DNA from: Patescibacteria group bacterium
GTDB lineage: Bacteria; Patescibacteriota; Patescibacteriia; Patescibacteriales; UBA12075
NCBI GenBank assembly: GCA_018897195.1
Contig: JAHILH010000001.1
Coordinates: 92,565-156,564 of the forward strand
Length of the DNA: 64,000 nt
Direction: 5' to 3'
Of the stretch, positions 11,323-52,303 are shown one piece after another. Under the pieces are notes generated by a model. That model worked only from the letters and a program-made list of their open reading frames with translations, ran no database searches and was not told the origin of the DNA. Made by a program: the position numbers and the translations under genes. Position 1 is the first letter of the stretch; the number at the start of each line of letters is the position of its first letter.

Positions 11323-11491
11323 TCGTCATTCCCGCGAAGGCGGGAATCCAGGTGCCACAGATAATGGCTGCATAATTATAGAAAATGTTTTAATAAAAAT
11401 ATTAATAACAAGAGACTTCGTAAATTTAAATTTTCCCGATATTAAAAACGATATACGAGGTACCTGGATCCCCGCCTTCGCGGGGATGACG
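11323..11491 (+). repeat. MITE-like hairpin-terminated element E1 (169 bp)
   Basis: Termini CGTCATTCCCGCGAAGGCGGGAATCCAGG / CCTGGATCCCCGCCTTCGCGGGGATGACG; conserved core ATAATTATAGAAA ... ATATACGAGGTACCTGG; fills the ftsI-murF gap. Confidence 0.85.
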
Positions 11492-11501
11492 GAAGAAATA
11501 T

Positions 11502-12788
11502 ATGAAAAAACTATTACAATTAAAATTGAAAATATTATCTCAGTTAATTTTGAAAAAATATCAGCCGAAAGTGATCGGTATTACGGGGAGTGTGGGTAAA
11601 ACGACCACCAAGGAGGCTGTTTACGCTGTCTTGAAAGATAAATTCAAGGTGCGCCGCAATATCAAGAACTATAACAATGAGATTGGTTTGCCCTTGACTA
11701 TCATTGGCGTGGAGTCGCCCGGAAAAAATCTTTTTGGCTGGCTTGGAGTTTTTTGGAAGGCCGTGTTTATGATTTTGATTAAAGATAAAGATTATCCTGA
11801 GGTTTTGATTTTGGAAATGGGTATTGATCGTCCGGGCGATATGATGTATTTGAATGAGATTGCCAATCCAAGTATTGCGATTGTGACGGCGGTGGGCAAT
11901 GTGCACTTGGAATATTTTGGATCGCGGAAAAAATTACAAAAAGAAAAGGCGGATTTGGTGCGGGTGGTTCCCAAGGAAGGCTTGGTTGTTTTGAATTTTG
12001 ACAATGAACTGGTGCGAGAAATGAAAAAAGACAGTAGGGCCAAGGTGGTGACGTTTGGCATGGATCCGGGGGCGGATTTGAATTGCAGTGAATCGCGTTT
12101 TAGCTTTGAGGGCGGTGGTAGTTTGCAAGGCATTAGTTTTAAAATCAAATACAATGGATCGACAGTACCTTTTCTAATACCAGGCGTAATCGGTTTTAAT
12201 TCGATTTATGCGGCCATGGCGGCAATTGCAGTTGCCACAAATTTCGGAATGAATATGGTGGAGATTGCGAGCAGGCTGAAGGAATTTCGATCACCGCAGG
12301 GTCGAATGAATCTACTCAAGGGTATTAAAAACACTTCGATAATTGATGATACATACAATTCTGAACCAGTCTCTTGTGTGGCAGGCTTGGATGTTTTAGG
12401 AAAGTTTGCGGTTAATGTTGGTGCGAAGAAGTTTGCAGTTCTGGGAGATATGTTGGAGCTTGGCCAAGAGAGCGTGGAGCGACATAGGGAAATTGGCGAG
12501 AAGGTAAAAAGCGCAGGCGTAAATGTTTTAATTACGGTCGGTGAGCGCTCACGCGATATTGATCATGGAGCGATTGAGGCAGGCATGAAAACTGATAATG
12601 TTTTTCATTTTAATAATTCCGAGGAAGCTGGTCTTTTTGTGCAGGAAAAAATCAGACAAGGGGATTTAATTTTTGTGAAAGGGTCACAGGGTGTCCGCAT
12701 GGAAAAGGTAGTAAAAGAAATTATGGCTGAACCGTTACGTGCAGAGGAGTTGTTGGTGCGCCAGGATAAGGAGTGGGGTAATAAATAA
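11502..12788 (+). CDS. murF: UDP-MurNAc-tripeptide--D-Ala-D-Ala ligase MurF
   Basis: P-loop GITGSVGKTTTKE, DDTYNSEP, GDMLELG motifs typical of MurF. Confidence 0.85.
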   Translation: MKKLLQLKLKILSQLILKKYQPKVIGITGSVGKTTTKEAVYAVLKDKFKVRRNIKNYNNEIGLPLTIIGVESPGKNLFGWLGVFWKAVFMILIKDKDYPEVLILEMGIDRPGDMMYLNEIANPSIAIVTAVGNVHLEYFGSRKKLQKEKADLVRVVPKEGLVVLNFDNELVREMKKDSRAKVVTFGMDPGADLNCSESRFSFEGGGSLQGISFKIKYNGSTVPFLIPGVIGFNSIYAAMAAIAVATNFGMNMVEIASRLKEFRSPQGRMNLLKGIKNTSIIDDTYNSEPVSCVAGLDVLGKFAVNVGAKKFAVLGDMLELGQESVERHREIGEKVKSAGVNVLITVGERSRDIDHGAIEAGMKTDNVFHFNNSEEAGLFVQEKIRQGDLIFVKGSQGVRMEKVVKEIMAEPLRAEELLVRQDKEWGNK

Positions 12789-12852
12789 GACATTTGCGCT
12801 AATTTTAGAAGTGTGCTATTTTTTTAGCAAATAATAATTAACTATAAAAACT

Positions 12853-13551
12853 ATGATTAGTATCTTAATTCCAGTTTATAATCAAGCTGACAAGATAAAG
12901 GCTTGTTTGGAAACTATTAAAAATCAAACTATTCAAGATTTTGAGATTATCATTGTTAATGATGGCTCAAAGGATAATATTGAGGAGGTAATGGAGGACT
13001 GTAAAGGTATGTTCACACAAAAATTTTCTTTTATTAGTCAGGTTAATCAAGGAGCGCCAGCAGCACGAAATCGTGCTTGGAAAGAGGCGACCGGTGAATA
13101 TTTGTTATTCAGTGATGCTGATCTAAAAATGGAGCCGACAATGTTTGAGGAGATGTTGAAAGCGCTCAAAGAAAATCCTGAGGCTTCATATGCTTATTGT
13201 TCTCATATGTTTGGTGAAAAATTATTTAGATTTTGGCCGTTTGATGCTGATAAATTAAGAGAGATTCCTTACGTTCATTCAACTTCGCTAATCAGGGCTA
13301 AAGATTTTCCAGAGGCGGGTTGGGATATTACATTTAAAAAATTCCAAGATTGGGATATTTTCTTAACCATGCTAGATAATGGTAAAACCGGTGTTTGGAT
13401 TGATAAAGTTTTGTTCAAGATTGAGACAGGTGGAACGATGAGTGGTTGGTTGCCAGCCGTAGCTTATAGATTGTTTCCGTTTTTGCCTAAAGTAAAAAAA
13501 TATCAACAATGGATGGCCATTATTAAGAAGAAGCATAATATAAAATTCTAA
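12853..13551 (+). CDS. glycosyltransferase family 2
   Basis: ISILIPVYNQ...IIIVNDGSKDN and the DAD motif (FSDADL). Confidence 0.8.
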   Translation: MISILIPVYNQADKIKACLETIKNQTIQDFEIIIVNDGSKDNIEEVMEDCKGMFTQKFSFISQVNQGAPAARNRAWKEATGEYLLFSDADLKMEPTMFEEMLKALKENPEASYAYCSHMFGEKLFRFWPFDADKLREIPYVHSTSLIRAKDFPEAGWDITFKKFQDWDIFLTMLDNGKTGVWIDKVLFKIETGGTMSGWLPAVAYRLFPFLPKVKKYQQWMAIIKKKHNIKF

Positions 13552-14015
13552 TGCGTAAAATATTTTCATTGTTGGCTGTCTTGTTAATCGTTGGCGTAGC
13601 TTATTTGGAAATTAAAGAAAATACCAAAGACGGCCGCTCTTTAGAGTTTCCAAATGTTAAAATAAATGAGACTATTATTAAAGTGCTAGTGGCCGATGAC
13701 ATGCAGGAGCAAACGCAGGGCTTGAGCGATAGGCCGAAGTTGGAAAAAAGTGAGGGCATGCTTTTTGTTTTTGACACCAAGCAGGAACGTTCATTTTGGA
13801 TGAAACAGATGAATTTCCCGTTGGATATTATCTGGATTGAGGATGATAAAATTGTAAATATTCATAAAAATTTACCACCTGAAGGTGATAATCCGGAAAA
13901 TCACTATGCCTCGCAATTTAGAATAAATTATGTTTTGGAGGTAAATGCCGGATTTGTAGATGAGCAAAAAATAAAAATTGGTGACACTGTCCAATACAAA
14001 TTGATTAAAAATTAA
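13551..14015 (+). CDS. DUF192 family protein (signal-anchored)
   Basis: GLSDRPKLEKSEGMLFVF...FWMKQMNFPLDIIWI matches my recollection of the DUF192/COG1430 pattern. Confidence 0.65.
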   Translation: MRKIFSLLAVLLIVGVAYLEIKENTKDGRSLEFPNVKINETIIKVLVADDMQEQTQGLSDRPKLEKSEGMLFVFDTKQERSFWMKQMNFPLDIIWIEDDKIVNIHKNLPPEGDNPENHYASQFRINYVLEVNAGFVDEQKIKIGDTVQYKLIKN

Positions 14016-14025
14016 AAATAAAAAA

Positions 14026-15588
14026 ATGAATCTAGATAAAAGTTTTTTTACGGTCAAAAAATTCGTGGCGGCGATCCCGACCATGCAAAAAACCGATGGT
14101 TTTTTTAAAAAAGTCCTGCTTGCCTTTTTGGCCATTGAGACGCTTTCATTGATTGGTTTTATTTTTCCTGTTTGGGGAAAGATTATTTTTGTTCTTGTGG
14201 TCTTGGGGGTGGTATTTTTAACATTCAAAAATTTAGAGTATGGGTTATTTATTTTGTTGGCTGAGTTAATTACCGGTTCAAAGGGGTATTTACTTTTTTT
14301 TAATTTGCCACACTTTAATTTGTCTATTAGAATGGCTTTATTTATTGTGGTTATAATTGCCATGGTGGGACAAATTAGCCTACTTGCGATTAAGACTAAA
14401 ACTTGTCCGCTATTACATTTTTTGAAAAATAAAAACTTTAAATATTTCGTACCGATTATTTTTTTCATAGGCTGGGGGGTGATAAACGCTTTTTTGAGCC
14501 ACAATGATTTCTCTTATATCTACCAAGATGCCAATGGTTGGCTGTTTTTTGCTTTAATTTTTCCTGTTTATTTTATCTACGAAAATAAAGAGGAGGATGG
14601 TAAAAAAATATTTAAGGAAAAAATTATTACTCTATTATTGGCGGCTACTTTTTGGATGGCGATAAAAACCTTTGTATTACTTTTTGTCTTTTCTCATAAT
14701 TCAGCCTCTACTATGACAACTGTTTATAAGTGGGTTCGCGATACAGGGGTGGGGGAAATAACAAGAATGCCAACCGGTTTTATTCGCATATTTTTTCAAT
14801 CGCATATTTTTGCAATTGTGTCGTTCTTTATAGTTTTATTCTCAATCGTGGAAAGCAAGAAAGTGAAAATTTTTGATTTTTTGCTCTTGACTACTTATGC
14901 GGCAATTACGATTTTGTCTTATTCACGTAGTAATTGGGTTGGCTTTGCAGGTGGCTTAGCTGTGTACTTGTTAATTATTTTATTTTTAAAATCTTGGTCT
15001 AGGATCGGCAAGGTTTTTTTGGCAGGTATTGCCTCGATGATTGTGTCGTTTATTTTTATCAATATATTGATCACATTTCCACACCCAAAACCGACGTCAA
15101 ATTTTAACACGATGGATATCGCGGAAAGAGCAACACAAATTACAAATGAGGCTGGAGTGTCTTCGCGTTGGAAATTATTAACACCTCTTTGGTCTGAAAT
15201 TAAAAAGTATTTTGTTATGGGTCATGGCTATGGTTCGACTGTAACCTATTTTAGTGAGGACCCGAGAGTGTTGGAAACAAGTCCGACTGGAGAGCTTACT
15301 ACTTTTGCTTTTGAATGGGGCTGGTTGGAGATTTGGTTAAAACTAGGTTTAATAGGAATGGCGTATTATTTATTTTTGATTGGCAGATTTACGGTATTTA
15401 ATTTCCATCTTAAAACACTTAATGATTTTTTTACGAGTCCGGAAAATATCACTAAATTAGCGCTAATAATTGGCTTAATTACTATTTCCATAATTTCGTT
15501 TTTTAGTCCCTACATGAATCATCCGTTGGGCATAGGATATTTAATTTTAATGTCGATTTTTATTGACAAAAAGTCCTTAAATAGTTAG
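14026..15588 (+). CDS. O-antigen ligase-like (Wzy_C) polytopic membrane protein
   Basis: 520 aa, more than 10 TM helices; SYSRSNWVGFAGGLAVYL loop motif typical of O-antigen ligase/polymerase domains. Confidence 0.6.
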   Translation: MNLDKSFFTVKKFVAAIPTMQKTDGFFKKVLLAFLAIETLSLIGFIFPVWGKIIFVLVVLGVVFLTFKNLEYGLFILLAELITGSKGYLLFFNLPHFNLSIRMALFIVVIIAMVGQISLLAIKTKTCPLLHFLKNKNFKYFVPIIFFIGWGVINAFLSHNDFSYIYQDANGWLFFALIFPVYFIYENKEEDGKKIFKEKIITLLLAATFWMAIKTFVLLFVFSHNSASTMTTVYKWVRDTGVGEITRMPTGFIRIFFQSHIFAIVSFFIVLFSIVESKKVKIFDFLLLTTYAAITILSYSRSNWVGFAGGLAVYLLIILFLKSWSRIGKVFLAGIASMIVSFIFINILITFPHPKPTSNFNTMDIAERATQITNEAGVSSRWKLLTPLWSEIKKYFVMGHGYGSTVTYFSEDPRVLETSPTGELTTFAFEWGWLEIWLKLGLIGMAYYLFLIGRFTVFNFHLKTLNDFFTSPENITKLALIIGLITISIISFFSPYMNHPLGIGYLILMSIFIDKKSLNS

Positions 15589-15675
15589 GATTTGGGGCGC
15601 CTTGCAAAAAAACCACTTTTAATATATATTTATAAAATATTTATTAATATTATTTATTCAATTAAAAATTATACT

Positions 15676-16134
15676 ATGGAAGATCAAATTATTACACAAG
15701 AGGGTTATGATAAGCTGAAGGATGAGTTGGATCATTTAAAAAATTTTAAAAGAAGAGAAATTGCGGATAGAATTCAAAAGGCCAAGGATATGGGCGACTT
15801 GAGTGAAAATGCCGAGTATTCTGAGGCTAAAGACGCACAGGCCTTCAATGATGGCCGCATTGCAGAATTAATGGCGATGTTGAAGAATTTAACCGTAGTC
15901 GAGTCAACTGAACATCATGATTCTATTGGTATGGGCTCGAAAATTGTAGTTAAGTCAGATGGCAAGGAAAGAGAGTTCATGATTGTAAGTTTTAATGAGG
16001 CTGATCCGATTAATGGCAAGATTTCAAATGAATCACCGTTGGGTAAAGCGTTTATTGGTAAAAAGAAAGGCGCGGTTGTGATGGTGCAGACTCCGAAGGG
16101 GGCAAAGGAGTATAGGATTGAGAAGATTAAGTAG
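15676..16134 (+). CDS. greA: transcription elongation factor GreA
   Basis: Start moved to ATG 15676 (MEDQIITQEGYDKLKDELDHLK...); DLSENAEY motif; 152 aa. Confidence 0.9.
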   Translation: MEDQIITQEGYDKLKDELDHLKNFKRREIADRIQKAKDMGDLSENAEYSEAKDAQAFNDGRIAELMAMLKNLTVVESTEHHDSIGMGSKIVVKSDGKEREFMIVSFNEADPINGKISNESPLGKAFIGKKKGAVVMVQTPKGAKEYRIEKIK

Positions 16135-16179: not shown

Positions 16180-16380
16180 GTTTGATTTTTTCTTATTATT
16201 TTAAGCTACGCGCTCTCGCTTGTGTTACTTTTGGGGGCAAAAGTAACCAAAACCCTTGGGGGTGTTAAATGCGCTATCACTTGAAGGGTTTTATCTATTT
16301 TAATACTGGCGCTTAGTTCACACCCCCAAGCCCCCAGTGTTATTCTAATATTGGAGAAAATATGGGGTATTATTTAGGAT

Positions 16381-16432: not shown

Positions 16433-16831
16433 ATGAAATTTTCAACAAAAACAACTTACGGTTTGCGAGCAATGATTTTGTTGGCCCAAGAAAAGAATAA
16501 GAGTGTTCCGCTATCTATGGTGGCGGAGCGCGAAGATATTTCTTTGAAATATTTAGAAAGAATATTTGCCCAATTAAAAAAGGCAAATTTAATTACTTCG
16601 GAAATGGGATCAATGGGCGGTTATTGTTTAGCTGGTGAGGCCAAGGATATTACGGTCTATGATATTGTCAAAACTCTGGAGGGTGAAATTGCCCCTTTTT
16701 ACTGTGTGGCCAAAAGCGAGAAAGTTTTTTGCGGTCATAAATGTAATTGTGGCGTGACCGGAGTTTTGAAAAAAGTACAGGATTCATTAGTTGAGACTTT
16801 GAGAGGAATTAAATTGGTGGATTTAATTTAA
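16433..16831 (+). CDS. Rrf2-family transcriptional regulator (IscR-like, Cys cluster present)
   Basis: MKFSTKTTYGLRAMILLAQ wHTH, SLKYLERIFAQLKKANLI, C-terminal cysteines CVAKSEKVFCGHKCNC. Confidence 0.85.
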   Translation: MKFSTKTTYGLRAMILLAQEKNKSVPLSMVAEREDISLKYLERIFAQLKKANLITSEMGSMGGYCLAGEAKDITVYDIVKTLEGEIAPFYCVAKSEKVFCGHKCNCGVTGVLKKVQDSLVETLRGIKLVDLI

Positions 16832-16835
16832 TCCA

Positions 16836-16998
16836 CGTCATTCCCGCGAAGGCGGGAATCCAGACACCTCAGATATTGAATTAAATTTAAAGAAAATAAA
16901 TGTTGATTTGATATTATTGCAAAGCATTTATAAAAATAGTTTCTATAATTATTAATCCACTCATTGTGGAGCCTGGATTCCCGCCTTCGCGGGAATGA
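16836..16998 (-). repeat. MITE-like element E2 (163 bp, inverted relative to E1/E3/E4/E5)
   Basis: Same termini. Core motifs appear as reverse complements (TTTCTATAATTAT; CTCATTGTGGAGCCTGG). Sits 4 nt after the Rrf2 stop and 7 nt before the Ldt start. Confidence 0.85.
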
Positions 16999-17005
16999 CG
17001 CAATA

Positions 17006-17746
17006 ATGAAATATTCTATTTTCATTTTACTGTTTCTGTTTACATTTCCTGTTTTTGTGACGGCAAATAATATTATCGACGCTGACGGCGATGGCGTTTC
17101 TGACGCAGATGAGATAAATATTTATAAAACTGATCCCAATCTTGCGGATTCAGACAGTGATGGTTATAGTGATTGGCTTGAATTGAATAATGGATTTTCA
17201 CCACTGACAAAGGAGAATTTAAAATTAGAAGATGTTGATACCGACAAAGATGGCTTGAGTGATAGAATGGAGTTGAAATTTGGTACTGATTTAAAAAATC
17301 CCGATACTGATGGTGATGGCTATAAAGACGGCGAGGAAATAAAATTTTATTTTGACCCCTTGAATAAAGAGGCGGTAAAATTACCAAAGAGGTTAGAAGT
17401 GAGTCTTGGCGGGCAGATGGTCTATTATTTTTTGGATGGAGTAAGAATGGGTTCTTTTAAAATTTCCTCTGGCAAGGCAAGTATGCCGACACCCAAGGGA
17501 CATTTTAAAATAATCAATAAGGCCAAAAAGGTTTGGTCTGATTATGGCCTATGGATGCCATATTGGATGGGTATGGGTACTGGTAAGTTTGGTTTTCACG
17601 AATTGCCAATTTGGCCCAATGGTTATCGTGAAGGGGAAAATCATTTGGGTATTCCAGTTTCGCACGGTTGCGTACGCCTAGGTGTTGGATCGGCAAAATT
17701 TTTGTACGACTGGGCTGAAGTTAGCACGCCGGTGTTTATTTATTAA
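17006..17746 (+). CDS. L,D-transpeptidase (YkuD) with four thrombospondin-type-3-like Ca-binding repeats
   Basis: Start moved to ATG 17006 because the track N-terminus MWSLDSRLRGNDAI is translated repeat. DADGDGVSDADE-type repeats x4; catalytic HGCVRL. Confidence 0.85.
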   Translation: MKYSIFILLFLFTFPVFVTANNIIDADGDGVSDADEINIYKTDPNLADSDSDGYSDWLELNNGFSPLTKENLKLEDVDTDKDGLSDRMELKFGTDLKNPDTDGDGYKDGEEIKFYFDPLNKEAVKLPKRLEVSLGGQMVYYFLDGVRMGSFKISSGKASMPTPKGHFKIINKAKKVWSDYGLWMPYWMGMGTGKFGFHELPIWPNGYREGENHLGIPVSHGCVRLGVGSAKFLYDWAEVSTPVFIY

Positions 17747-18143: not shown

Positions 18144-18186
18144 TCTCCATCTCCTGGTCAGGAGAGGGTCGGGGTGAGGTTGCAGT
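18144..18186 (-). repeat. GC-rich palindromic repeat, family 2, copy B (inverted)
   Basis: Reverse complement CTGCAACCTCACCCCGACCCTCTCCTGACCAGGAGATGGAGA shares 24 identical nt with copy A. Confidence 0.8.
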
Positions 18187-18524: not shown

Positions 18525-18832
18525 AGGGATGAGAATGTTGATAGTTGACTGAGTGACAATTGTTTGTTGACACGGCCGGTGGGGGTGGCCTACATGATGT
18601 TTTCTTTGTCGTTGACCAAGGATTTTTCTCCGTTTTGAAGAGTTTTGGTTAGACGTCGGTGGGGTCGCTACACATGAATTTTTCCTCCTTGTTTTAAGGA
18701 TGAATCAATTGCTGCTGCCTTTTTCCGATGGACTTCCATCACCAATGGGTCTCACGTTTTCCCTCCTGTCAATTATACACATTTTTTCTCAATACTTTAA
18801 TTATAGCAAAAATTTAAAATTAATCAAATAAT

Positions 18833-24131: not shown

Positions 24132-24359
24132 ATGGAAAATTTATTTAAAAAAATCAATCATAAAATTAATAGTTTGATTTGGTCTTTACTTAGTTCCGGC
24201 ATCCTTTTATTGCTGATGGCAATATTAATTGTCTGGACTGATTTTTTATTAAGGATTATTTTTAGTTTAATTACCTTAATTATTGCTTATATATTTTTAG
24301 TCAGCGCTTACAAGTTGTGGCATTTGAAAAAAGATATCACAAGTCATTTCAAATTTTAA
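24132..24359 (+). CDS. small 2-TM membrane protein
   Basis: 75-aa ORF with two hydrophobic helices. Confidence 0.4.
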   Translation: MENLFKKINHKINSLIWSLLSSGILLLLMAILIVWTDFLLRIIFSLITLIIAYIFLVSAYKLWHLKKDITSHFKF

Positions 24360-24364
24360 AAACA

Positions 24365-26029
24365 ATGTTCAATCCAACCTTATCAAAAAAAACTGACACG
24401 CCGCTAACTCCTAATGATGACTCAAAGAAGCTTTTTCAGGCTATCTATAAAAAGCAAAATAAAAAGGAATCTGGTAGTGACGACGTACAAAAAATTAATG
24501 TCTCCGACTTGGTTTCTAAGATGTCTTTTTACTATGAAAAAATTAGAAACTCAGTTGATTATAAGGAGGATAATTTATTGCGTAAAAACGCGATTGAGCG
24601 AATTTTGAAGCGACATATTGTGATTGAGAATGTGGTTTCACTCAAAGATGTTAATAGTCAAGACGTTTCTCGTCATTTACTTGTGGAATTGATTCGGGCT
24701 GGTTATATGCCCAATAATTCGATTCCAGAAAGCAAGATTGATGAATTCTCGGTGGTAATTGCTAAATATCTGCAATTAAAAAAATATTTCTTAGAATATT
24801 TCCGAGAGAAAAAGATACAAGAGCGTAATGAAATGAGCAATTGGGTTCTTTCTTTGTGTGCGACAGACTTGGAAGAGCGCATTGGTCGTTCTGACGTTGA
24901 TAATGTGTTGGTCGCTTATATGTATGACATTCTAACGGCTGGTGTGAAGTTTGAGAATGGATCTGAGTATGAAAAGGATCGTGATATTCAAATTTATATC
25001 GGTATTCACTCGACGATGATGAAGTATGATCATAGTATGGTCTCGTTCTTGTTGTTCAAATATTTTAATGCTGGCTGGGATAGTGCGACCGATGAGCAGG
25101 TAAAAGAGGTGGCAGTGAATATTTTTTCACTTAAGGCGGCTATTGATGGGCAAATTCATCATCCTATTACCGGACAATTGCGAAAAATAATTAGTCGCTA
25201 TACTGTTTATTTCACTATGCTTATGGATGTCATTGAGGACGATTGCGTTGGTATTTATAATTCTTTCAGTGCTGATCCCAAGGCTTTTCCGCATCATATT
25301 AAGCGCGTGTGCGAAGTTCGTTACAAGGGAACCAAGAAAAAATTATGGCGCGCGGCGATTCGTAGCTTGATCTATGTCTTTATTACCAAATCTATTTTAG
25401 CCTTTGTTCTTGAGGTGCCGGTGACAAAATGGCTAGGCGAGGAGTTGAACACAACATCCTTGATGATTAATATTGCTTTTCCAGTTGCATTGCTCTTTGT
25501 GGTGGTAGCTTTGACTAAGTTGCCGTCAAAGGAGAATTCTGAAAAGATTGTTAGTGGTATAGAGGAAATTGTCTTTATTGAAAAAAAGCGTACTGAGCCA
25601 ATCGTAATGCGTCAACCAATTAAACAAGGTGGTCTTATGAACGCAATTTTTGGCATTATTTATGCGGCAACTTTTTTAACGTCTTTTGGAGCCGTGGTCT
25701 GGGCTTTGCAAAAAATTAACTTTCATTTTGTCAGTATTACTATTTTCTTATTTTTCTTGGCTCTGATTAGTTTCTTTGGTATTAGAATTCGTCGCAATAC
25801 TAGAGAGTTAATCGTGATTCCGCCAAGAGAAAATATTTTGAATTTTATTTTGGACTTCTTCTATGTTCCAGTGATTGCGGTGGGCAAGTGGTTGAGTGAG
25901 AAGTTTTCCCAGGTAAACGTCTTCGTTTTTATTCTTGATTTTATTATTGAAGCTCCGTTTAAGATTTTTGTGGAAATTGCTGAAGAATGGACGAAATATG
26001 TGAAGAATCGAAAGGATGAGATATCTTAA
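24365..26029 (+). CDS. large membrane protein (soluble N-terminal ~340 aa plus 4-5 C-terminal TM helices), unknown function
   Basis: Start moved to ATG 24365 (MFNPTLSKK); no catalytic motif recognised. Confidence 0.5.
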   Translation: MFNPTLSKKTDTPLTPNDDSKKLFQAIYKKQNKKESGSDDVQKINVSDLVSKMSFYYEKIRNSVDYKEDNLLRKNAIERILKRHIVIENVVSLKDVNSQDVSRHLLVELIRAGYMPNNSIPESKIDEFSVVIAKYLQLKKYFLEYFREKKIQERNEMSNWVLSLCATDLEERIGRSDVDNVLVAYMYDILTAGVKFENGSEYEKDRDIQIYIGIHSTMMKYDHSMVSFLLFKYFNAGWDSATDEQVKEVAVNIFSLKAAIDGQIHHPITGQLRKIISRYTVYFTMLMDVIEDDCVGIYNSFSADPKAFPHHIKRVCEVRYKGTKKKLWRAAIRSLIYVFITKSILAFVLEVPVTKWLGEELNTTSLMINIAFPVALLFVVVALTKLPSKENSEKIVSGIEEIVFIEKKRTEPIVMRQPIKQGGLMNAIFGIIYAATFLTSFGAVVWALQKINFHFVSITIFLFFLALISFFGIRIRRNTRELIVIPPRENILNFILDFFYVPVIAVGKWLSEKFSQVNVFVFILDFIIEAPFKIFVEIAEEWTKYVKNRKDEIS

Positions 26030-26038
26030 TTTGTCTTC

Positions 26039-26208
26039 CGTCATCCCCGCGAAGGCGGGGATCCAGGCGCCACAAATTTTGGATATATAATTATAGAGAC
26101 TTTTTTTAAAAAAATATTAATAACAATAAATACTTCATATATTTTAACTCTCCTTAAATGGAAAACAATATACGAGGTACCTGGATTCCCGCCTTCGCGG
26201 GAATGACG
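26039..26208 (+). repeat. MITE-like element E3 (170 bp)
   Basis: CGTCATCCCCGCGAAGGCGGGGATCCAGG ... TATAATTATAGAGAC ... ATATACGAGGTACCTGGATTCCCGCCTTCGCGGGAATGACG; 9 nt after the upstream stop, 14 nt before the rsmI ATG. Confidence 0.85.
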
Positions 26209-26222
26209 AGGAAATAAATACA

Positions 26223-26984
26223 ATGAATACTTTATATATTGTCGGTACGCCGATAGGTAATTTAGAAGATATTAGTATGCGAGCTCTCCGTATTCTAGGA
26301 GAGGTTGATTTTGTGCTGTGCGAGGACACACGCGTGACTGGAGTTTTGTTGCATCGCTATGACATTAAGACGAAGATGATCTCTTATCATCAGCATTCGG
26401 ATGAGAATAAAAATAAGCAGATTTTAAAATTATTGGCTGACGGCAAAAATCTCGCTCTTGTTACTGATGCTGGGACACCTGGCATCTCTGATCCAGGTGG
26501 CCGCTTGGTCCAAGATGTAATTGAGAAATTTGGCAGCGATGATGGTGTGAAAATAGAATCTGTGCCTGGTCCATCAGCGGTAACGGCGGCCTTATCTATT
26601 TCAGGAATTGCCACCGACAAATTTATTTTTTTAGGTTTTTTACCACACAAAAAAGGTCGTCAAACTTTCTTGGATCGGATTCCCGAAACCCATGACCCGA
26701 TTGTGATTTATGAATCTAAGCATCGAATTATTAAACTACTTCAAGAATTAATTGAGGTTAATAAAAAAAGTGAAGAGTACAATCTTAAGTTGGAAGAAAT
26801 GGATCCCTATCAAAAGAAGAAACAGGGCCTAGAGAGAAAAAGGCAAGTGACTTCAGTAGTTGTTTGCCGTGAATTATCCAAGATGCACGAAACTGTTTAT
26901 CGTGGTGATTTGGAAACTATTATTAAGAGAATTGAAGAAAATAAAGACGATCAAAAAGGAGAATTTGTTGTTATTATCGCTTAA
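26223..26984 (+). CDS. rsmI: 16S rRNA 2'-O-methyltransferase RsmI
   Basis: LYIVGTPIGNLEDISMRALRILGEVDFVLCEDTR and TDAGTPGISDPG motifs. Confidence 0.88.
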   Translation: MNTLYIVGTPIGNLEDISMRALRILGEVDFVLCEDTRVTGVLLHRYDIKTKMISYHQHSDENKNKQILKLLADGKNLALVTDAGTPGISDPGGRLVQDVIEKFGSDDGVKIESVPGPSAVTAALSISGIATDKFIFLGFLPHKKGRQTFLDRIPETHDPIVIYESKHRIIKLLQELIEVNKKSEEYNLKLEEMDPYQKKKQGLERKRQVTSVVVCRELSKMHETVYRGDLETIIKRIEENKDDQKGEFVVIIA

Positions 26985-39953: not shown

Positions 39954-40997
39954 GTGTTTAATAAATTCTTAGGAAAATTTAGTAAAGATTTGGGCATCGA
40001 TCTCGGTACCAAAAATACTCTTGTGTATACTTCGGACAAGGGTATTGTTATTAATGAACCATCTGTGGTCGCTATCAATACACGGACGGATGAGATTTTG
40101 GCTGTGGGTGATGAGGCGCGCAAGATGGTGGGTAAGACTCCGGGGCATATTCAGGCGGTGCGACCGTTGGTTGACGGTGTGATTTCTGATTTTGAGGTGA
40201 CGGAAAAGATGTTGAAATATTTTATCGACAAGGTGCATAATGAGAGCTTTACTTTGATTCCGCGTCCGCGCGTGGTGATTGGTGTGCCTTTGGATATTAC
40301 CGAGGTGGAGCGCAAGGCGGTGGAGGATGCGGCGAAATCGGCCGGAGCGCGACAAGTATTTTTGATTGAAGAGTCAATGGCGGCGGCGATTGGGGCGCGT
40401 TTGCCCGTGGCCGATCCGACGGCGACGATGATTGTGGATATTGGTGGCGGGACAACGGAAATTTCCGTGATTTCGCTAGGCGGTGTGGTAGCGTGGAAGT
40501 CATTGCGCTTGGCTGGTAATGAATTGGATAATAATATCATTCAGTATATTCGGGAAGAATTTAATATTTTGATTGGTGAGCAATTGGCGGAATCGATTAA
40601 GATTAAAATTGGTTCAGCGACAGTTTTGAAAGAAAAAATCGAGATGGAAGCGCGTGGTCGTGATTTATTGAATGGTTTACCAAAGGCGATTACGATCAAT
40701 GATAGTCAGGTGCGTGAGGCGATTAGTCGGACGGTTTTACAGATTGTGGAAAATATTAAAACAACTTTGGAAATTACGCCACCAGAATTGGTATCAGATA
40801 TTTATGAGCACGGAATTGTATTGACCGGCGGCGGCGCTCTTTTGCGCGGATTAGATAAGGAAATTGCACAAGCAACCAAGATCCCTGTACGCGTGGCTGA
40901 TGATCCTCTGACCTGTGTGGTCCGCGGCACTGGTATTCTGCTCTCTGATCCGGAGCTATTGGCGAAGGTCATTACTCCTGGTCCGGATAAAATGTAG
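39954..40997 (+). CDS. mreB: rod-shape protein MreB
   Basis: GTG start; DLGIDLGTKNT, DIGGGTTEISV, VLTGGGALLRGLD actin-fold motifs. Confidence 0.93.
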   Translation: MFNKFLGKFSKDLGIDLGTKNTLVYTSDKGIVINEPSVVAINTRTDEILAVGDEARKMVGKTPGHIQAVRPLVDGVISDFEVTEKMLKYFIDKVHNESFTLIPRPRVVIGVPLDITEVERKAVEDAAKSAGARQVFLIEESMAAAIGARLPVADPTATMIVDIGGGTTEISVISLGGVVAWKSLRLAGNELDNNIIQYIREEFNILIGEQLAESIKIKIGSATVLKEKIEMEARGRDLLNGLPKAITINDSQVREAISRTVLQIVENIKTTLEITPPELVSDIYEHGIVLTGGGALLRGLDKEIAQATKIPVRVADDPLTCVVRGTGILLSDPELLAKVITPGPDKM

Positions 40998-41004: not shown

Positions 41005-41160
41005 CGTCATTCCCGCGAAGGCGGGAATCCAGGCGCCACTGCGAGTGTTTAAAATTATAGAAACCTATTGAATTATAATTTAATATTTAGATGAAATAAA
41101 TTTACTATATCTAGTATCATTATACGAGGTACCTGGATTCCCGCCTTCGCGGGAATGACG
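41005..41160 (+). repeat. MITE-like element E4 (156 bp)
   Basis: Both termini of the TTCCCGC type; core AAAATTATAGAAAC ... TTATACGAGGTACCTGG; 7 nt after the mreB stop. Confidence 0.85.
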
Positions 41161-41235
41161 AAAGAATAGGGTATTTATTTATACAAGAATAACAAAAACA
41201 AAAAAATTTTGTCCGCCTTATTCTTGTATTTTTTT

Positions 41236-42045
41236 ATGAACAAAAACAACAAACAAAAATTCATCACCACCATGGCTGTGCTTTTGGTTTTTGTGGCTGG
41301 TCATTATATCGGCATCTTTCGGCCGATTGAAAATCTTTTTGTCAAAATCTTGAATCCGATTTTCGGCGGTTTTAATTCAGCTGGTTTGGGGATTAAGAAT
41401 ACTTACAATGATAGCGTGAACAAGGCGGATTTGTTGAAGAGCTTGGAGGAAATGAAAATTCAGGGCAACGCCTTGATTGAGGAGAATGCGAAATTGAAAA
41501 CCGTGCAGGAGGAGAATGAATTGTTGCGTGGGTATTTAAGCTTCTTCACCAAGACGAATTATAAGTATGTGATGAGTAATGTCGTTTCGCGTGGGAGTAT
41601 TTCGGATACCTTGAAAACAACTGAGACGATTACTATTGATCGTGGGAGTAAAAGTGGCGTAGTGGTTGGACAGGCAGTGGTTAATAACAAGGGTATTATT
41701 GTGGGCAAGGTGGCCGAGGCAAAGGATGATATTGCGAAAGTTTTTTTAGTGAATAGTAATCAATGTAAGTTGGCGGCGACAATGTTCAATAATGATAAGA
41801 CGGCGGGAATCGCAGAAGGTGAGTTGGGTTTGACGATTCGCATGAGTTTTATTCCGCAAACTCAAAAGTTAAATAAAAATGATTTAGTGGTGACTTCCGG
41901 ACTTGAGCCTTTGATTCCACGTGGTCTGGCAATCGGTAAAGTGACTCAAGTTGATGGTGGTAATAACGACTTGTGGCAGTCAGCCGTAATTGAACCTTTG
42001 GTTAATCCCGATGATTTAACTATTGTGTCGGTCTTATTAAAATAA
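41236..42045 (+). CDS. mreC: rod-shape protein MreC
   Basis: Start moved to ATG 41236; TM, coiled coil, then beta domains with VTSGLEPLIPRGLAIGKV. Confidence 0.8.
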   Translation: MNKNNKQKFITTMAVLLVFVAGHYIGIFRPIENLFVKILNPIFGGFNSAGLGIKNTYNDSVNKADLLKSLEEMKIQGNALIEENAKLKTVQEENELLRGYLSFFTKTNYKYVMSNVVSRGSISDTLKTTETITIDRGSKSGVVVGQAVVNNKGIIVGKVAEAKDDIAKVFLVNSNQCKLAATMFNNDKTAGIAEGELGLTIRMSFIPQTQKLNKNDLVVTSGLEPLIPRGLAIGKVTQVDGGNNDLWQSAVIEPLVNPDDLTIVSVLLK

Positions 42046-47246: not shown

Positions 47247-47960
47247 ATGGATCAGAGAAAAGAGAAAATTTTGCTAACTATCATCAAGGAACACATCAAA
47301 ACTGGGGTGCCGGTTGGTTCGACTGGGCTTGTGGAAAAGTACGACCTGGGGGTGTCTTCGGCGACGATTCGGAATGAGATGGCTGACCTTGAAGAGGATG
47401 GTTATATCATGCAACCACATACTTCAGCAGGGCGAATTCCCACTGAGAAGGCTTATGATTTCTTTTTGGAGGATTTGAAGCCGAAGAAGGTGAGTGATAA
47501 TATCGTATCTTTATTGAAGGAGTTGTTGCGCGAAAAGGAAGAGGCGGATTTTAAGAAAGTGGCAAAGGCTTTGTCGGAGATGACGAACTCGGCTGTGTTC
47601 TGGGCTTTTCATAAACACAATCTGTATTACACGGGAATTTCTAATCTTTTTAAACAACCGGAATTTTTGTCGATTAACTCCAAGATGCCGACGGATCGTA
47701 ATTATGAATTAATTTACGATATTTCTTCAGTAATTGACCGAATGGAAGATATTATTGATGATATTTTTGAAAAGATAAATGAGGGGGAAAATATTTGGTT
47801 GGGCTCGAAAAATCCGTTTGGTAATTTTTGCGGTTCAATTGTTATTAAATATAAGCTAAAAGATAGGGTGGGCGTATTTGGACTTCTCGGGCCGATGCGA
47901 ATGGATTATGAAAAAAACATTGCCATTATGCGACACATCGAAAAACTAATTAATAGTTAA
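47247..47960 (+). CDS. hrcA: heat-inducible repressor HrcA (short 237-aa form)
   Basis: wHTH ...VGSTGLVEKYDLGVSSATIRNEMADLEEDGYIMQPHTSAGRIPT; precedes grpE. Confidence 0.82.
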   Translation: MDQRKEKILLTIIKEHIKTGVPVGSTGLVEKYDLGVSSATIRNEMADLEEDGYIMQPHTSAGRIPTEKAYDFFLEDLKPKKVSDNIVSLLKELLREKEEADFKKVAKALSEMTNSAVFWAFHKHNLYYTGISNLFKQPEFLSINSKMPTDRNYELIYDISSVIDRMEDIIDDIFEKINEGENIWLGSKNPFGNFCGSIVIKYKLKDRVGVFGLLGPMRMDYEKNIAIMRHIEKLINS

Positions 47961-48005
47961 TTAGTCATTAATTAAATCTTAATTAAAATATTATAATATA
48001 TAAGT

Positions 48006-48533
48006 ATGAAGAAAGAAGAAAAAAAAGACCATAACAAAGAGGAAGAAATTGAAAATGAAGAGGTGAAAGGTGCTACTGATGCGCAAGAAGAAGCCACTCC
48101 AACCGAAGAGGTAAAGAGTAGATGTGAAAATTGCGATGAGTCGGACAATAAATATAAAAGAGCTTTAGCGGATTATCAGAATTTATTAAAAAGAACCGCA
48201 AAAGAAAAAGAAGATTTTTTCAAATATTCTAACGAACAGTTGATTGTTGAAATGATTCCAGTCTATGACAACCTAAAAACATCTCTTGAACACACTGATG
48301 AACAGATTGAAAAGAGCGCCTGGTTAGAGGGTGTGAAATATGTTTTAAAGCAATTCAAAGGTATTTTAGAAGGTGTGGGTGTAGAGGAAATAAAAACTGT
48401 TGGTGAAAAATTTGATCATAATACCATGGATGCGATTGACGGTACTGGGGACAAGGTGATCAAAGAAGGGAAGCCGGGATATAAGTTAAATGGAAAAGTG
48501 ATAATTCCAGCACGGGTGATATTGGGAGAATAA
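48006..48533 (+). CDS. grpE: nucleotide exchange factor GrpE
   Basis: YKRALADYQNLLKR ... FDHNTMDAI pattern; position between hrcA and dnaK. Confidence 0.88.
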   Translation: MKKEEKKDHNKEEEIENEEVKGATDAQEEATPTEEVKSRCENCDESDNKYKRALADYQNLLKRTAKEKEDFFKYSNEQLIVEMIPVYDNLKTSLEHTDEQIEKSAWLEGVKYVLKQFKGILEGVGVEEIKTVGEKFDHNTMDAIDGTGDKVIKEGKPGYKLNGKVIIPARVILGE

Positions 48534-48619
48534 TATATAATAAATATTTAATTAATAATCTGATGATGTTTATTAAACAAATGCTGATTTGTTTGTGAGA
48601 CGTCAAAGGACAAAATCGT

Positions 48620-49048
48620 ATGGCTTTGATCAAATGGACCCCATTTCTTGAACCATTCGAAGAAATGGATAAGATGTTGTCGGATTTTGCTCCGACTATT
48701 CATCGACAAGGTGGCTATGTGCCGGCAGTTGATATGTATGAAGACAAGGACAACGTAATTGTGGAGACGCAGTTAGCGGGTATCGATCCTGACGGGGTAA
48801 GCATCTCGATTGAAAATGATGTTTTGACGATTAAGGGTGAAAGTGAGAAGAAGAGTGAAGTGGAAGAGAAGAACTATTACAAAAAAGAAATCAGACGCGG
48901 TAGTTTTTATCGCAGCATTCAATTGCCAACTCATGTAAGCGGTGATGCGGCGAAGGCGATTGCCGAGGATGGAGTTTTGAAAATCACAATTCCAAAATCT
49001 GAAGGTGCAAAACCTAGAACTATCAAGATTGAAACCAAGAAAAAATAA
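48620..49048 (+). CDS. small heat-shock protein (Hsp20/alpha-crystallin)
   Basis: PAVDMYEDKDNVIVETQLAGI ... GVLKITIPK alpha-crystallin domain. Confidence 0.9.
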   Translation: MALIKWTPFLEPFEEMDKMLSDFAPTIHRQGGYVPAVDMYEDKDNVIVETQLAGIDPDGVSISIENDVLTIKGESEKKSEVEEKNYYKKEIRRGSFYRSIQLPTHVSGDAAKAIAEDGVLKITIPKSEGAKPRTIKIETKKK

Positions 49049-49173
49049 TTGTTTTTTCATTATGTTGCTTCATTTAATTAATGAAGCAATGAGATGATAA
49101 AGTAATATTTACAATTTATTTAATCAGGTAAGGTATGAGATTATGTATTTCATGCTTTTGCCTAAATGTTATT

Positions 49174-50067
49174 ATGAGTCAAACAAATGAAGACCTTAAA
49201 GTTAGTGTTACCAACGAGGGTGGTGAGAAGCGCGGACGTAAACCTAAAAAAAGGATTGAGGCAGAGAGAATGGATCAAATTGAAAGACCGAAGGCGAGAG
49301 TGCCAAAAGAAGGTATGAAAATGACAGTGATTTCCGTTGTGATTACGGCGATTGTTGTGGGCGGCGGCCTGTATGCTTGGCAAAGAGAAAAAATTAATAG
49401 CACTGTGAATAGCATTACAGAAGAAGCAAGAAATACTAGAGTTGATTTAGAAAAGAAATTAACCAATATTAAAGACAAGGCACAGGGGCTACAGACAGAG
49501 GTGGAGGAATTGAAAAGTAAAAATGAAAAATTGTCAGAAGCTGAGGCTTTATTGGCTAATGCCAAGATTGAATTTAACAATACTGAGCTAGGAATCAAAT
49601 TCGAATATCCAGCTAGTCTGGGCGAAGCTAAGATAACGATTGAGAATGGTGAGGGTGGCAAAACCATCAAGGGCACATTTAGTAAAAATGATAAATTGGT
49701 ATTTGGTGGTGTGAGTAAGAATTATCAAAAACAAGGATCTTCAACTGTTACTGAGCTCTTAGATTTTCAGGGCTATAAAGATGTGAAGAAAACGGTTTAC
49801 TTCTTGGCACCTAGCTCCAATGTTGATGGTTATGAAATGACTACAGCGGGAGAAGTGGTGACCGGCAAGGGCAAGGCCTTCTTATTGAATGATAAGAGTT
49901 TTGCAATGAAAGCATCAAGTACAGAAGCTGTGGTAAATATTGGTCAGAATTTGGCGGCTGTGGTGAACATTACCAATCCTGATTTTGGTGGCATTATTTT
50001 CGTAAATTCTGATTTTGGAATGATGAGCGTTGATAACTTTAAGAAGTTGATTGGTTCAATAAAATAA
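49174..50067 (+). CDS. membrane-anchored coiled-coil protein, unknown function
   Basis: Start moved to ATG 49174; TM MTVISVVITAIVVGGGLYAW then coiled coil; inserted between hsp20 and dnaK. Confidence 0.4.
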   Translation: MSQTNEDLKVSVTNEGGEKRGRKPKKRIEAERMDQIERPKARVPKEGMKMTVISVVITAIVVGGGLYAWQREKINSTVNSITEEARNTRVDLEKKLTNIKDKAQGLQTEVEELKSKNEKLSEAEALLANAKIEFNNTELGIKFEYPASLGEAKITIENGEGGKTIKGTFSKNDKLVFGGVSKNYQKQGSSTVTELLDFQGYKDVKKTVYFLAPSSNVDGYEMTTAGEVVTGKGKAFLLNDKSFAMKASSTEAVVNIGQNLAAVVNITNPDFGGIIFVNSDFGMMSVDNFKKLIGSIK

Positions 50068-50145
50068 GATTGAAAAATTATTAATTTAATTACATAATAG
50101 TGCCTTGTTTAGGACATTGTGCTTTATGCGATATATAAAATATTT

Positions 50146-52038
50146 ATGAGTAAGATACTTGGTATCGACCTTGGTACAACTAATTGTGCGATGTCGATCA
50201 TGGAGGGTGGACAGCCGAAAATTTTAGAGAATGCTGAGGGTAATAGAACAACACCATCAGTGGTAGCTATTTCAAAAAATGGCGAAAGACTAGTTGGTCA
50301 AACTGCAAAAAGACAATCTGTAACTAATCCAGAAAACACTGTTTATGCAGTAAAACGTTTGATTGGTCGTCATTTTAATGACAATGAAGTGCAAAGAGAT
50401 ATTAACACTGTGCCTTACAAGATTGTAAAGAGTGGCGAGGGTGTGGCCGTACACATGGGCGACAAAGATTATTCTCCGCAAGAAGTTTCAGCGATGATTT
50501 TGTCAAAATTGAAAGCTGATGCAGAAGCAAGAATTGGTGAAAAAATTACTGAAGCGGTTATTACCGTGCCGGCATATTTTAATGATTCACAAAGACAAGC
50601 AACTAAGGATGCGGGTAAAATTGCCGGTCTAGATGTAAAGCGTATTATCAACGAACCGACAGCAGCAGCTTTGGCCTATGGCTTTGACAAGAAAAAAGGC
50701 CAGAAGATTGCGGTATATGATCTTGGTGGTGGTACTTTTGATATTTCTGTTTTGGAAATCAGTGAAGATACGGTTGAGGTAAAATCAACCAACGGTGATA
50801 CTCATCTTGGTGGTGAAGATTTTGACCAAGTTTTGATTAAGTGGATTATTGAAGATTTCAAAAAAGAAAATGGCATTGACTTATCAAAAGACAATTTGCC
50901 GTTGCAAAGAATTAAGGAGGCTGCTGAGAAAGCGAAGATTGAGTTATCAACGATGATGGAAACCGAAATCAACCAACCGTTTATTACGACGGGCGAAAAC
51001 GGTCCATTGCATTTGGTTAAGAAAATTACTCGGGCAAAATTTGAAGAGTTGGTTGGCGACTTGGTTGAAAAGACTTTGGAACCAGTGCGAGCCGCTTTGA
51101 AAGATTCTGGCTTGACTGTAAACGATATTGAAGAAGTGGTGATGGTGGGTGGTATGACTAGAATGCCTTTGGTATTAGCGAAGGTGAAAGAATTTTTTGG
51201 CAAAGAACCGCATTTGGGTGTAAATCCTGACGAGGTGGTAGCGGCTGGTGCGGCGGTGCAAGCTGGTGTATTACAAGGTGATGTAAAAGATTTATTACTT
51301 TTGGATGTAACACCTTTAACATTGGGTATTGAAACAATGGGTGGTGTATCCACTGCCTTGATTGATAGAAACACAACTATCCCAGCTTCAAAATCTCAAA
51401 TTTTCTCCACTGCGGCTGACAATCAACCGGGTGTAGAGATTCACATTTTACAAGGTGAGCGCTCAATGGCGGCTGATAACAAGACTTTGGGTAGATTTAT
51501 GTTGGATGGTATTCCACCAGCTCCACGTGGTGTGCCCCAAGTTGAAGTAACTTTTGATATTGATGCGAATGGTATTTTGCACGTGAAAGCACAAGATAAG
51601 GCAACTGGTAAAGAGCAAAAGATTACCATTACTTCATCATCAGGACTTGATGAAAAAGAAATTGAGAAGATGAAAAAAGATGCGGAGATGCATGCCGAAG
51701 AAGATAAGAAAAAGAAAGATAGCGTGGAGGCAAAAAATCACGCTGAGTCTGTAATTTTCTCTACGGAAAAATTAATCAAAGAATCTGGCGATAAAATGAG
51801 CGAGGCGGACAAAAAAGAGTTGGAAGAGAAATTGGAAGAATTAAAGAAAGTAAAAGATTCAACTGATTCTGAAGATATTAAGAAAAAGATGGAGGATGTA
51901 AATGTAATTGCGCAAAAAATTGGCACAGCAATGTACCAAAACGCGCAAAGCGAGCAAACAGCTCAACCGGGTGCGGAAGGTGAAGAAAAGAAAGACGGCG
52001 ACAATGTCGTTGAAGGTGAGGTTGAAGAGAAGAAGTAA
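50146..52038 (+). CDS. dnaK: chaperone DnaK (Hsp70)
   Basis: Start moved to ATG 50146 ([13 protein letters not shown]); [19 protein letters not shown]-terminal EEKK tail. Confidence 0.95.
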
Positions 52039-52061
52039 ATAACTTTCTAAGTAGCTTCATA

Positions 52062-52089
52062 GACTGCCTATTGTGTTCAATAGGCAGTC
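52062..52089 (+). terminator. hairpin after dnaK (weak terminator or stabiliser)
   Basis: GACTGCCTATT-gtgttc-AATAGGCAGTC 11-bp stem; only a weak T-run follows. Confidence 0.45.
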
Positions 52090-52110
52090 GGTTGAATTTA
52101 TTTATTCCTT

Positions 52111-52303
52111 CGTCATTCCCGTCCCCAGTCAAGCTGAGGATAAACCTCCGGCGGGAATCCAGGCGCTACAGATTTTGAATATATAATTATAGAGACTAAT
52201 TTAAATAAAAAAATTGATAATAAAAAACTTTGTATATTTTAATTTTCCTTATACAGAAAACATTATACGAGGTGCCTGGATCCCCGCCTTCGCGGGGATG
52301 ACG
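52111..52303 (+). repeat. MITE-like element E5 (193 bp, variant left terminus)
   Basis: In the left hairpin the GCGAAG apex (distal G-C pair plus the GAAG loop) is replaced by TCCCCAGTCAAGCTGAGGATAAACCTCC. Core is nearly identical to E3 (TATAATTATAGAGAC). Right terminus is the TCCCCGC type. Confidence 0.85.

Follow-up and report, generated by a model that had tools for sequence, protein, structure and literature searches.

Five copies of a short intergenic element, E1 to E5, occur in a 64 kb stretch of a Patescibacteria (candidate phyla radiation, CPR) genome. Each of them is probably a non-autonomous derivative, deleted for its open reading frame (ORF), of a unit in which ssnA, a gene for a small GIY-YIG nuclease, is enclosed by two inverted copies of the hairpin motif NTS. 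The stretch, called the window, covers positions 92,565 to 156,564 of contig JAHILH010000001.1, and 10 kb on either side was also examined, giving 84 kb in all. A preliminary description of the window had reported five MITE-like copies (miniature inverted-repeat transposable elements) with terminal inverted repeats (TIRs) of about 29 nt. All five were recovered with a repeat finder and MAFFT, E2 in inverted orientation, with a mean column identity of 74%. The positions first given for E3, E4 and E5 were exact; E1 starts at 11324, and E2 ends at 17000, 2 nt beyond the end given earlier. The copies share one layout: a 29-nt end CGTCAT(T/C)CCCGCGAAGGCGGG(A/G)ATCCAGG, an AT-rich core of about 100 nt (98-111 bp) and then the same end in reverse complement. 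The alternatives T/C and A/G, already recognised in the preliminary description, always change as a pair, giving ATTCCC..GGGAAT or ATCCCC..GGGGAT. Conserved subterminal motifs are real but looser than claimed, with YGCCACA exact in two of the five copies and ATAATTATAGARA and AWTATACGAGGTRCCTGG in four each. The 20-nt end core ATTCCCGCGAAGGCGGGAAT, with up to three mismatches allowed, was found at nine sites in the window against 0.00 expected (100 shuffles). The looser oriented pattern GTCATYCC-N10-GGRATC returned exactly those nine sites (0.83 expected), so the window contains no solo termini. Each of the five elements stands alone, at a distance of 5-15 kb from the next, and no arrays are formed. 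E2 is the most divergent copy, with a core identity of 60-67% to the others, and E4 was assigned to a divergent subfamily.

By their sequence and structure, and by the gene with which they are associated, the termini belong to the NTS/SRM family. They had been described as widespread but functionally uncharacterised; the first part is correct, the second is superseded by the identification of the motif, CGTCATTCCCGCGMAVGCGGGAATCYRG, as a substrate of SsnA (Chenal et al. 2025, Nat Commun 16:2388; PMC11893778). Compared with CGTCATTCCCGCGMAVGCGGGAATCYRG, five window termini match at 28/28 positions, four carry a compensated T>C / A>G pair and one has a loop insertion. SsnA is a 94-aa single-domain GIY-YIG protein which binds NTS only as a hairpin of single-stranded DNA (ssDNA), 8 bp in length, and in one orientation only; it cuts a few nucleotides upstream (5') of NTS and in vitro tolerates removal or extension of the loop (PMC11893778). 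In Neisseria, SsnA together with NTS restrains transformation (PMC11893778). Motifs were reported near 71% of ssnA homologs and on both sides of 42%, and the NTS-ssnA-NTS layout was called identical to an insertion sequence (IS), its mobility being merely hypothesised (PMC11893778). The text of that paper mentions neither Patescibacteria nor MITEs. A literature search for follow-up work found none, and searches with raw DNA and peptide strings of the terminus gave no match. NTS contains the 20-bp Neisseria repeat dRS3, ATTCCC-N8-GGGAAT (PMC1797815), of which it is a longer, oriented form.

Scanning of IMG/VR with the 20-mer gave at least 120 stretches. Among the matches listed there were 119 unique viral contexts, in which GTC precedes the core in 116 and CCA follows it in 103; beyond these nucleotides the flanks are unrelated and range in GC content from 28 to 65%. 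On GC-rich viral contigs one or two half-sites, each made of GTCATTCCCGC and 9-13 variable nt, stand in tandem ahead of the full NTS in 11/119 contexts (L003, L004, L007, L040, L051, L114 and L116 are examples), and they resemble a repeated partial duplication of the 5' arm. On phage contigs, a single NTS in the CGTCAT to CCAGG orientation stood directly upstream of a ribosome-binding site and ATG in 26/119 contexts (for instance L074 at 3661, 4056 and 7762, L082, L102 and L105) against 16 on the other side, a weak excess.

When metagenomes were scanned for the right subterminal sequence together with the terminus, 13 contigs were recovered, mostly from one sample, with about 15 further family copies. 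Related contigs bear at least 20 copies of the family, at differing loci, and a sixth copy next to E1-E5 lies 8 kb upstream of the window (L227 902-1093). Several of the related contigs hold ORF-bearing units (Table 1), all co-oriented with the host operon. The 98-aa protein encoded in L210, classified by Pfam alone, is a single GIY-YIG domain (PF01541, E 5e-18). For this CPR Ssn a sequence search found no homolog in PDB, and comparison with NCBIfam gave just a weak, sub-threshold match to a group I intron endonuclease. Close homologs of 72-95% identity are encoded on further contigs; none was found in viral contigs. A phmmer search of the retrieved loci with CPR Ssn identified GIY-YIG genes between inverted NTS in the GC-rich viral contigs L030, L058, L092, L016 and L075, and CPR Ssn is 50% identical to the NTS-flanked homolog of one such contig.

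When three ssnA units are aligned with six MITEs, two segments are collinear: the left 100 nt or so, made up of NTS and the 5' leader that precedes the start codon of ssnA, and about 60 nt at the right, which run from the final codons through the 3' leader to NTS. Between them lies one gap of about 265 nt, over the ORF. Since both ends are collinear and the one gap covers the ORF, the window elements are read as internal-deletion derivatives of the ssnA unit. Similarity of the subterminal sequences (60 nt on the inner side of the left NTS and 40 nt on that of the right) mostly exceeds that of composition-matched shuffles, with z mostly 2-5.6 and usually 0-2/300 shuffles reaching it; the left-end comparisons of E4 with L210 and with L215 are weaker (z 1.1-1.8). 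The preliminary description had advised a search for an autonomous, transposase-encoding partner. An ORF-bearing unit with the same ends does exist, and its product is a GIY-YIG nuclease, not a recognised transposase.

Table 1. Positions of the window elements, of ssnA units on related contigs and of the regions matched by two Rfam families.
Feature	Position	Strand	Length and structure	Ends	Context
E1	window 11324..11491	+	168 bp, NTS-core-NTS	left NTS 11324-11352, T/A type; right NTS 11463-11491, - strand, C/G type	spacer between ftsI-like penicillin-binding protein gene (9312-11318) and murF (11502-12788)
E2	window 16836..17000	-	165 bp	NTS 16836-16864 and 16972-17000	spacer between rrf2 regulator (16433-16831) and secreted-protein gene (17006-17746)
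E3	window 26039..26208	+	170 bp	left NTS 26039-26067, C/G type; right NTS 26180-26208, T/A type	spacer between ORF of 570 aa, unknown (24317-26029), and rsmI (26223-26984)
E4	window 41005..41160	+	156 bp	NTS 41005-41033 and 41132-41160, mutually complementary without mismatch	spacer between mreB (39954-40997) and mreC (41209-42045)
E5	window 52111..52303	+	193 bp	left 52111-52163, loop-extended NTS, 28 nt in place of CGAA; right NTS 52275-52303	spacer between dnaK (50119-52038) and dnaJ (52321-53394)
NTS-ssnA-NTS unit	L210 5365-5785		same ends and subterminal motifs around 98-aa ORF		
NTS-ssnA-NTS unit	L215 1532-1976 (also L216, L219)				between metallophosphatase and AMMECR1 genes
NTS-ssnA-NTS unit	L220 1565-1987				within ATP synthase operon
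ssnA-type unit	L217/L218			flanked by a different SRM, GTCATCCTCGGGCTTGACCCGGGGATCCAGG	
RF02625/RF02748 matched regions	window 26013-26229 and 16817-17016				

Two ways of folding had been proposed for each element, as two local hairpins or as one long stem of 29 bp. Covariation bears out the first and not the second. In an alignment of 19 copies (A3), all 304/304 cells of the local 8-bp hairpins were paired and 14 were changed on both sides, which was reached in 0/500 shuffles. Pairing of the left with the right end showed no covariation beyond shuffles, and T/A-type and C/G-type ends assort independently within elements. Because the local pairs covary and the inter-terminal pairs do not, the conserved structure is the local hairpin of each terminus, as expected for an ssDNA protein site, and not the long stem. 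As ssDNA the terminus is predicted to fold with -8.9 kcal/mol (z -3.5); a read-through RNA is predicted to prefer the long stem (-73.6 kcal/mol, z -9.5).

The loop-extended NTS at the left of E5 is a multi-copy type, present also in L204 (two copies), L206, L207, L211, L213 and L227, on the ssnA units of L215/216/219, and as the right end in L225 and L227. The outer NTS stem stays closed in the predicted fold, and such an end would probably remain an Ssn substrate. No loop-extended terminus was found in viral contigs by scans of which the first pattern was limited to the E5 subtype. Two orthologous pairs differ only in terminus type, intact or loop-extended: E5 and its ortholog in L209, of which the left NTS is intact, and E3 and its ortholog in L225. 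These pairs point to exchange between the ends of different copies. The 28-nt loop insertion itself holds a small hairpin, CCCCAG-TCAAG-CTGAGG, similar to the core of the L217-type SRM. A nested 18-nt mini-palindrome, ATCCCGAG(YR)CTCGGGAT, lies within the AT-rich MITE core of L203 (about 1000-1020) and L214 (about 430-450).

Occupancy of the sites varies among species-level relatives of 78-83% nucleotide identity, in which empty sites, one of the checks suggested in the preliminary description, were found. At the E3 site the element is present in the window and L225 and absent from L224, which has a spacer of 17 nt, and from L226; L221-223 have an unrelated filler of 168 nt there. At the E2 site, L221/L222 have an NTS-free spacer of 49 nt. 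None of the empty E3 and E2 sites contains any NTS. A further pair of contigs, L202 and L211, is syntenic with about 84% identity; a copy that adjoins a toxin-antitoxin pair in L211 corresponds to a 50-nt spacer in L202. At another site shared by both, the element of L202 is 94% identical to that L211 copy and L211 holds a 71%-identical member of the loop-extended subfamily; the junction nucleotides differ between the genomes. Toxin-antitoxin-like pairs (a Phd/RelB-type antitoxin and a RelE-like toxin) are variably present in spacers which hold or adjoin elements, at L211 4633-5157, L221 10845-11393 and L225 3256-3534, and are lacking in the window and in L224.

E4 and E5 have orthologs at the same junctions in L212 and L209, relatives with a nucleotide identity of about 82-86%. 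The core of E4 is 94% identical to that of L212 and the core of E5 86% identical to that of L209, against 63-67% at third codon positions. This conservation is not exceptional, as other intergenic DNA between the same genomes is 71-90% identical. The E4 and E5 insertions are old. It had been argued beforehand that orthologous junctions filled in all relatives, with host-level divergence, would indicate an ancient fixed sequence; E4 and E5 behave in this way, and the polymorphic E2 and E3 do not. Turnover among species-level relatives is thus evident, and recent activity in this genome is not. Among the dnaK loci examined, from 79 of 80 CPR relatives, only six have even a lone NTS-like hairpin. 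The dnaK-dnaJ spacers of the nearest Falkowbacteria are not clean empty sites, because a small extra gene or other SRM types are located there. In the Falkowbacteria-like L122 (7950-8560) and L132 (8200-8795) this spacer contains other hairpin repeats, from GTCATTCTGAG... to ...GAATGAC, which flank a small conserved gene in L122 and a GIY-YIG gene in L132. Ssn-type units appear to have landed repeatedly in the dnaK-dnaJ spacer.

For the origin of the elements from NTS-ssnA-NTS units, the following course is proposed. Ssn would bind the NTS hairpin at each end and nick a few nucleotides 5' of it. As the ends are inverted, the NTS that can be cleaved lies at the low-coordinate end on the + strand and at the high-coordinate end on the - strand. 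A cleavable NTS at the 5' boundary of each strand makes each strand nickable just outside its own 5' boundary. Nicking would take place on transiently single-stranded DNA, after which synthesis or recombination by the host could copy or relocate the unit; Ssn acting in trans, together with host repair or replication, may in this manner have mobilised or copied the ORF-less units as well. Most window copies would now be old fixed passengers, co-transcribed with essential operons, and their RNA could form the long stem. The alignment of the filled and empty E3 sites, which is ambiguous, suggests that the inserted segment reaches about 5-7 nt beyond CGTCAT on each side, and such an overhang would suit a cut upstream of NTS at the published position. 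In 21 copies the 3-4 nt just beyond CGTCAT are rich in pyrimidines at either end.

A number of observations weigh against this derivation. No direct repeat abuts the element in 19/21 copies, the other two showing 1-2 nt by chance, and no target-site duplication (TSD), which the preliminary description had advised to look for, is visible between the filled and empty E3 sites. The junction nucleotides of the polymorphic sites have diverged between relatives, and at the species-level distance of these relatives gain is not separable from loss. Relatives have E4 and E5 too, with a divergence no higher than that of the host, so that these copies give no sign of recent activity in this genome. As stated before, the window contains no transposase; neither a transposase nor ssnA or any other GIY-YIG gene was found in the 84 kb, and none of the best 120 Ssn homologs lies on a contig as large as the 565-kb contig that bears the RsmI gene of the window. 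GIY-YIG enzymes are hydrolytic and none is known to have strand-transfer activity, which leaves the integration step unexplained. Recombination among NTS copies could also account for the subfamily swaps without transposition. The MITE-like reading is upheld in its main points, though not in full. The elements form a multi-copy, ORF-less TIR family with an ORF-bearing partner and variable occupancy; with no TSD and no recognised transposase in the partner, they are not classical cut-and-paste MITEs.

A wider claim, that NTS-ssnA-NTS is a genuine and as yet unclassified prokaryotic transposable element, mobilised by its 98-aa GIY-YIG nuclease and completing its move by host replication or repair, is put forward tentatively and is somewhat doubtful. 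If true, the CPR elements would be the first recognised MITEs of NTS-ssnA-NTS, and the sequence needed in cis would be limited to some 100 nt of the left end and 60 nt of the right. Nicks outside the 5' boundaries would then predict a giant staggered cut with the whole element copied by fill-in synthesis, and this would explain both the absent TSDs and the tandem NIME arrays of Neisseria.

Alternatively, the elements could be fixed intergenic hairpin modules that now serve the host, by mRNA processing or stabilisation or by differential output of dnaK over dnaJ and of mreB over mreC, their mobile origin being incidental; in a variant they would mark DNA for the restriction of incoming ssDNA by Ssn. 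REP/BIME sequences of E. coli have roles in mRNA processing or stabilisation. In the set of 20 copies, 19 are co-oriented with the flanking genes, the core of E2 being the sole inverted one, and the copies stand 3-26 nt from stop and start codons. Window elements begin 4-72 nt past the upstream stop and end 5-48 nt ahead of the downstream start; the whole window has a positive GC skew, and almost all of its long ORFs lie on the + strand. The co-orientation and close spacing, the retained orthologs at mreB/mreC and dnaK/dnaJ, the very stable long hairpin predicted for read-through RNA and the restraint of transformation in Neisseria (PMC11893778) all fit a host function. However, the similar identity of other intergenic DNA, the relatives that lack the element at the E2 and E3 sites and a covariation that favours DNA-type local hairpins over the long RNA stem do not, and a scan of the core for sigma-70 promoters and terminators gave no consistent signal, which also leaves an account of the orientation bias by outward promoters unsupported. 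With both variants taken together, we consider a host-serving role unlikely. A terminator-like hairpin lies 3' of dnaK at 52062-52089, before E5.

Spread by recombination rather than transposition, with NTS hairpins as hot spots and the cores as cassettes swapped between NTS sites, is quite improbable. A precedent for such hot spots was proposed in Neisseria, with dRS3/NIME arrays and phage integration of the IS110 type (PivNM), and a recombination hypothesis for NIME has been set out (PMC1797815). The shared site of L202/L211 with different subfamilies in the two genomes, the orthologs that differ only in terminus type and the independent assortment of left and right terminus types would all be accommodated. 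But the window holds no solo NTS as acceptor, and the empty E3 and E2 sites are free of NTS, so new sites arise without a pre-existing hairpin; nor was an IS110-type gene seen adjoining any copy, the flanking ORFs not having been systematically scanned for transposase families. That the elements are REPINs, i.e. REP doublets moved by a RAYT (Y1 HUH) transposase of the IS200/IS605 superfamily, is scarcely credible: two inverted hairpin repeats around a short spacer, the lack of a TSD, the intergenic copies and the single-strand DNA logic implied by the hairpin would agree with it, but at the four independent sites in CPR and on the five GC-rich viral contigs the sole gene found between these ends is GIY-YIG and not Y1, there is no GTAG-type REP head, and the same 27-nt sequence occurs across very different hosts while REP/RAYT pairs are lineage-specific.

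Some further candidates were dropped. A likeness of the hairpin to type I-E CRISPR repeats was set aside because the window has no arrays or spacers; an origin from a tRNA or T-arm was discarded for lack of similarity; and sub-threshold Rfam matches to plant miRNA families were regarded as generic matches of a long hairpin. At gathering thresholds, Rfam found one tRNA in the window and nothing else.

The window contains other repeated sequences. A second, unrelated palindromic repeat, CTACAACCTCACCCCGACCCTCTCCTGTCCAGGAGAGGGAGA, is present as inverted copies at 7847-7888 and 18144-18185, 10 kb apart and 93% identical; both are intergenic and each has a 10-bp CCCTCTCCTG/CAGGAGAGGG hairpin. An intergenic stretch of 135 nt upstream of rrf2 (16226-16349) is 76% identical to 3648-3781 of L204, an unrelated contig of the sister population, and has no Rfam match. 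In the long spacer before a cysteine desulfurase gene (18833), two similar GC-rich segments, CGGTGGGGGTGGCCTACATGATG... and CGGTGGGGTCGCTACACATGAAT..., were noticed by eye at 18570-18700, without an Rfam match at E<=0.01. The window lies on a metagenomic contig, and its DnaK is 80% identical to proteins from metagenome-assembled genomes (MAGs) of Candidatus Falkowbacteria and Parcubacteria, which places the host, a Falkowbacteria-like MAG, in the Patescibacteria. In an independent assembly of the same organism, L227 ends at window position 7125 and L228 starts at 52280, inside the right NTS of E5, so that such repeats break the short-read assemblies of this MAG.

NTS and Ssn were known before; new is the NTS family in a new phylum and in the form of a deletion derivative. 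The NTS/dRS3 hairpin is among the most widely shared short sequences of bacteria and phages, and its enzyme partner Ssn was identified only in 2025. This CPR lineage offers a compact natural experiment, in which ORF-bearing units occur alongside their deletion derivatives, some ends are loop-extended and sister genomes differ in whether a site is filled or empty; with these the IS-like hypothesis for Ssn becomes testable through the cut position, the minimal cis sequences and mobilisation in trans. As evidence and test bed for Ssn units as mobile elements, the window copies are of moderate value. They also explain recurrent spurious ORFs. The peptides VIPAKAGIQ and LDSRLRGND, pointed out in the preliminary description, are direct translations of the terminus, and SFPRRRES and WIPAFAGMT are accounted for as well, as are assembly breaks in CPR MAGs.

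Comparison with known systems places the elements closest to NTS/Ssn (PMC11893778). The terminus fits the consensus as an oriented hairpin with non-palindromic flanks, related contigs carry NTS-ssnA-NTS with a 98-aa single-domain GIY-YIG protein, and the loop-extended variants agree with the loop tolerance reported for SsnA. The host is different, being Patescibacteria/CPR, and the units are ORF-less, divided into subfamilies and polymorphic for presence, with no ssnA gene within 84 kb. NIME (dRS3-RS-dRS3; PMC1797815) shares the inverted pair of 20-bp ATTCCC-N8-GGGAAT repeats around a 50-150-bp AT-richer repeat and the same wave of composition, from GC-rich ends to an AT-rich core. Of the ten window termini, five fit dRS3 exactly, four are the ATCCCC..GGGGAT variant and one (E5 left) is loop-extended. 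Unlike NIME with its alternating dRS3/RS arrays, the window units are isolated; they have one core family with an identifiable ORF-bearing parent and are tightly set inside essential operons, nearly always co-oriented with transcription.

With REP/BIME, REPIN-RAYT and IS200/IS605 the elements have in common hairpin-forming extragenic repeats, the absence of a TSD, a doublet as the replicating unit and a gene for a single-strand DNA enzyme flanked by its own repeats. The enzyme is a GIY-YIG hydrolase here and, in REPIN-RAYT and IS200/IS605, an HUH Y1 transposase that forms a covalent intermediate; the repeat is common across phyla, whereas REP is lineage-specific. Like classical bacterial MITEs, e.g. 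Correia elements, they are small, ORF-less, multi-copy, intergenic and co-transcribed, with TIRs and an internal-deletion origin from a longer element, but they have no TSD and their partner encodes no known transposase. In their working they resemble a MITE or a REPIN, yet fail on TSD and RAYT respectively. Two small RNA (sRNA) families of Rfam are similar as well. The long-hairpin consensus of WsnRNA46 (Wolbachia sRNA 46, RF02625) has the ends GUCAUCC...GAUCCAG / CUGGAU...GAUGAC, equal to an SRM pair, and that of FtrB (Francisella, RF02748) contains guCauuCcCGCGuAGGCGgGaauC, the NTS unit. E3 scores 36.2 bits and E2 42.2 bits with WsnRNA46, whose gathering threshold is 65.3, and the score with FtrB is 26 bits against 66; the elements therefore belong to neither family, from which they also differ in stem sequence. 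At least these two Rfam sRNAs are suggested to overlap such elements, and WsnRNA46 and FtrB may be transcripts of Ssn-associated repeats.

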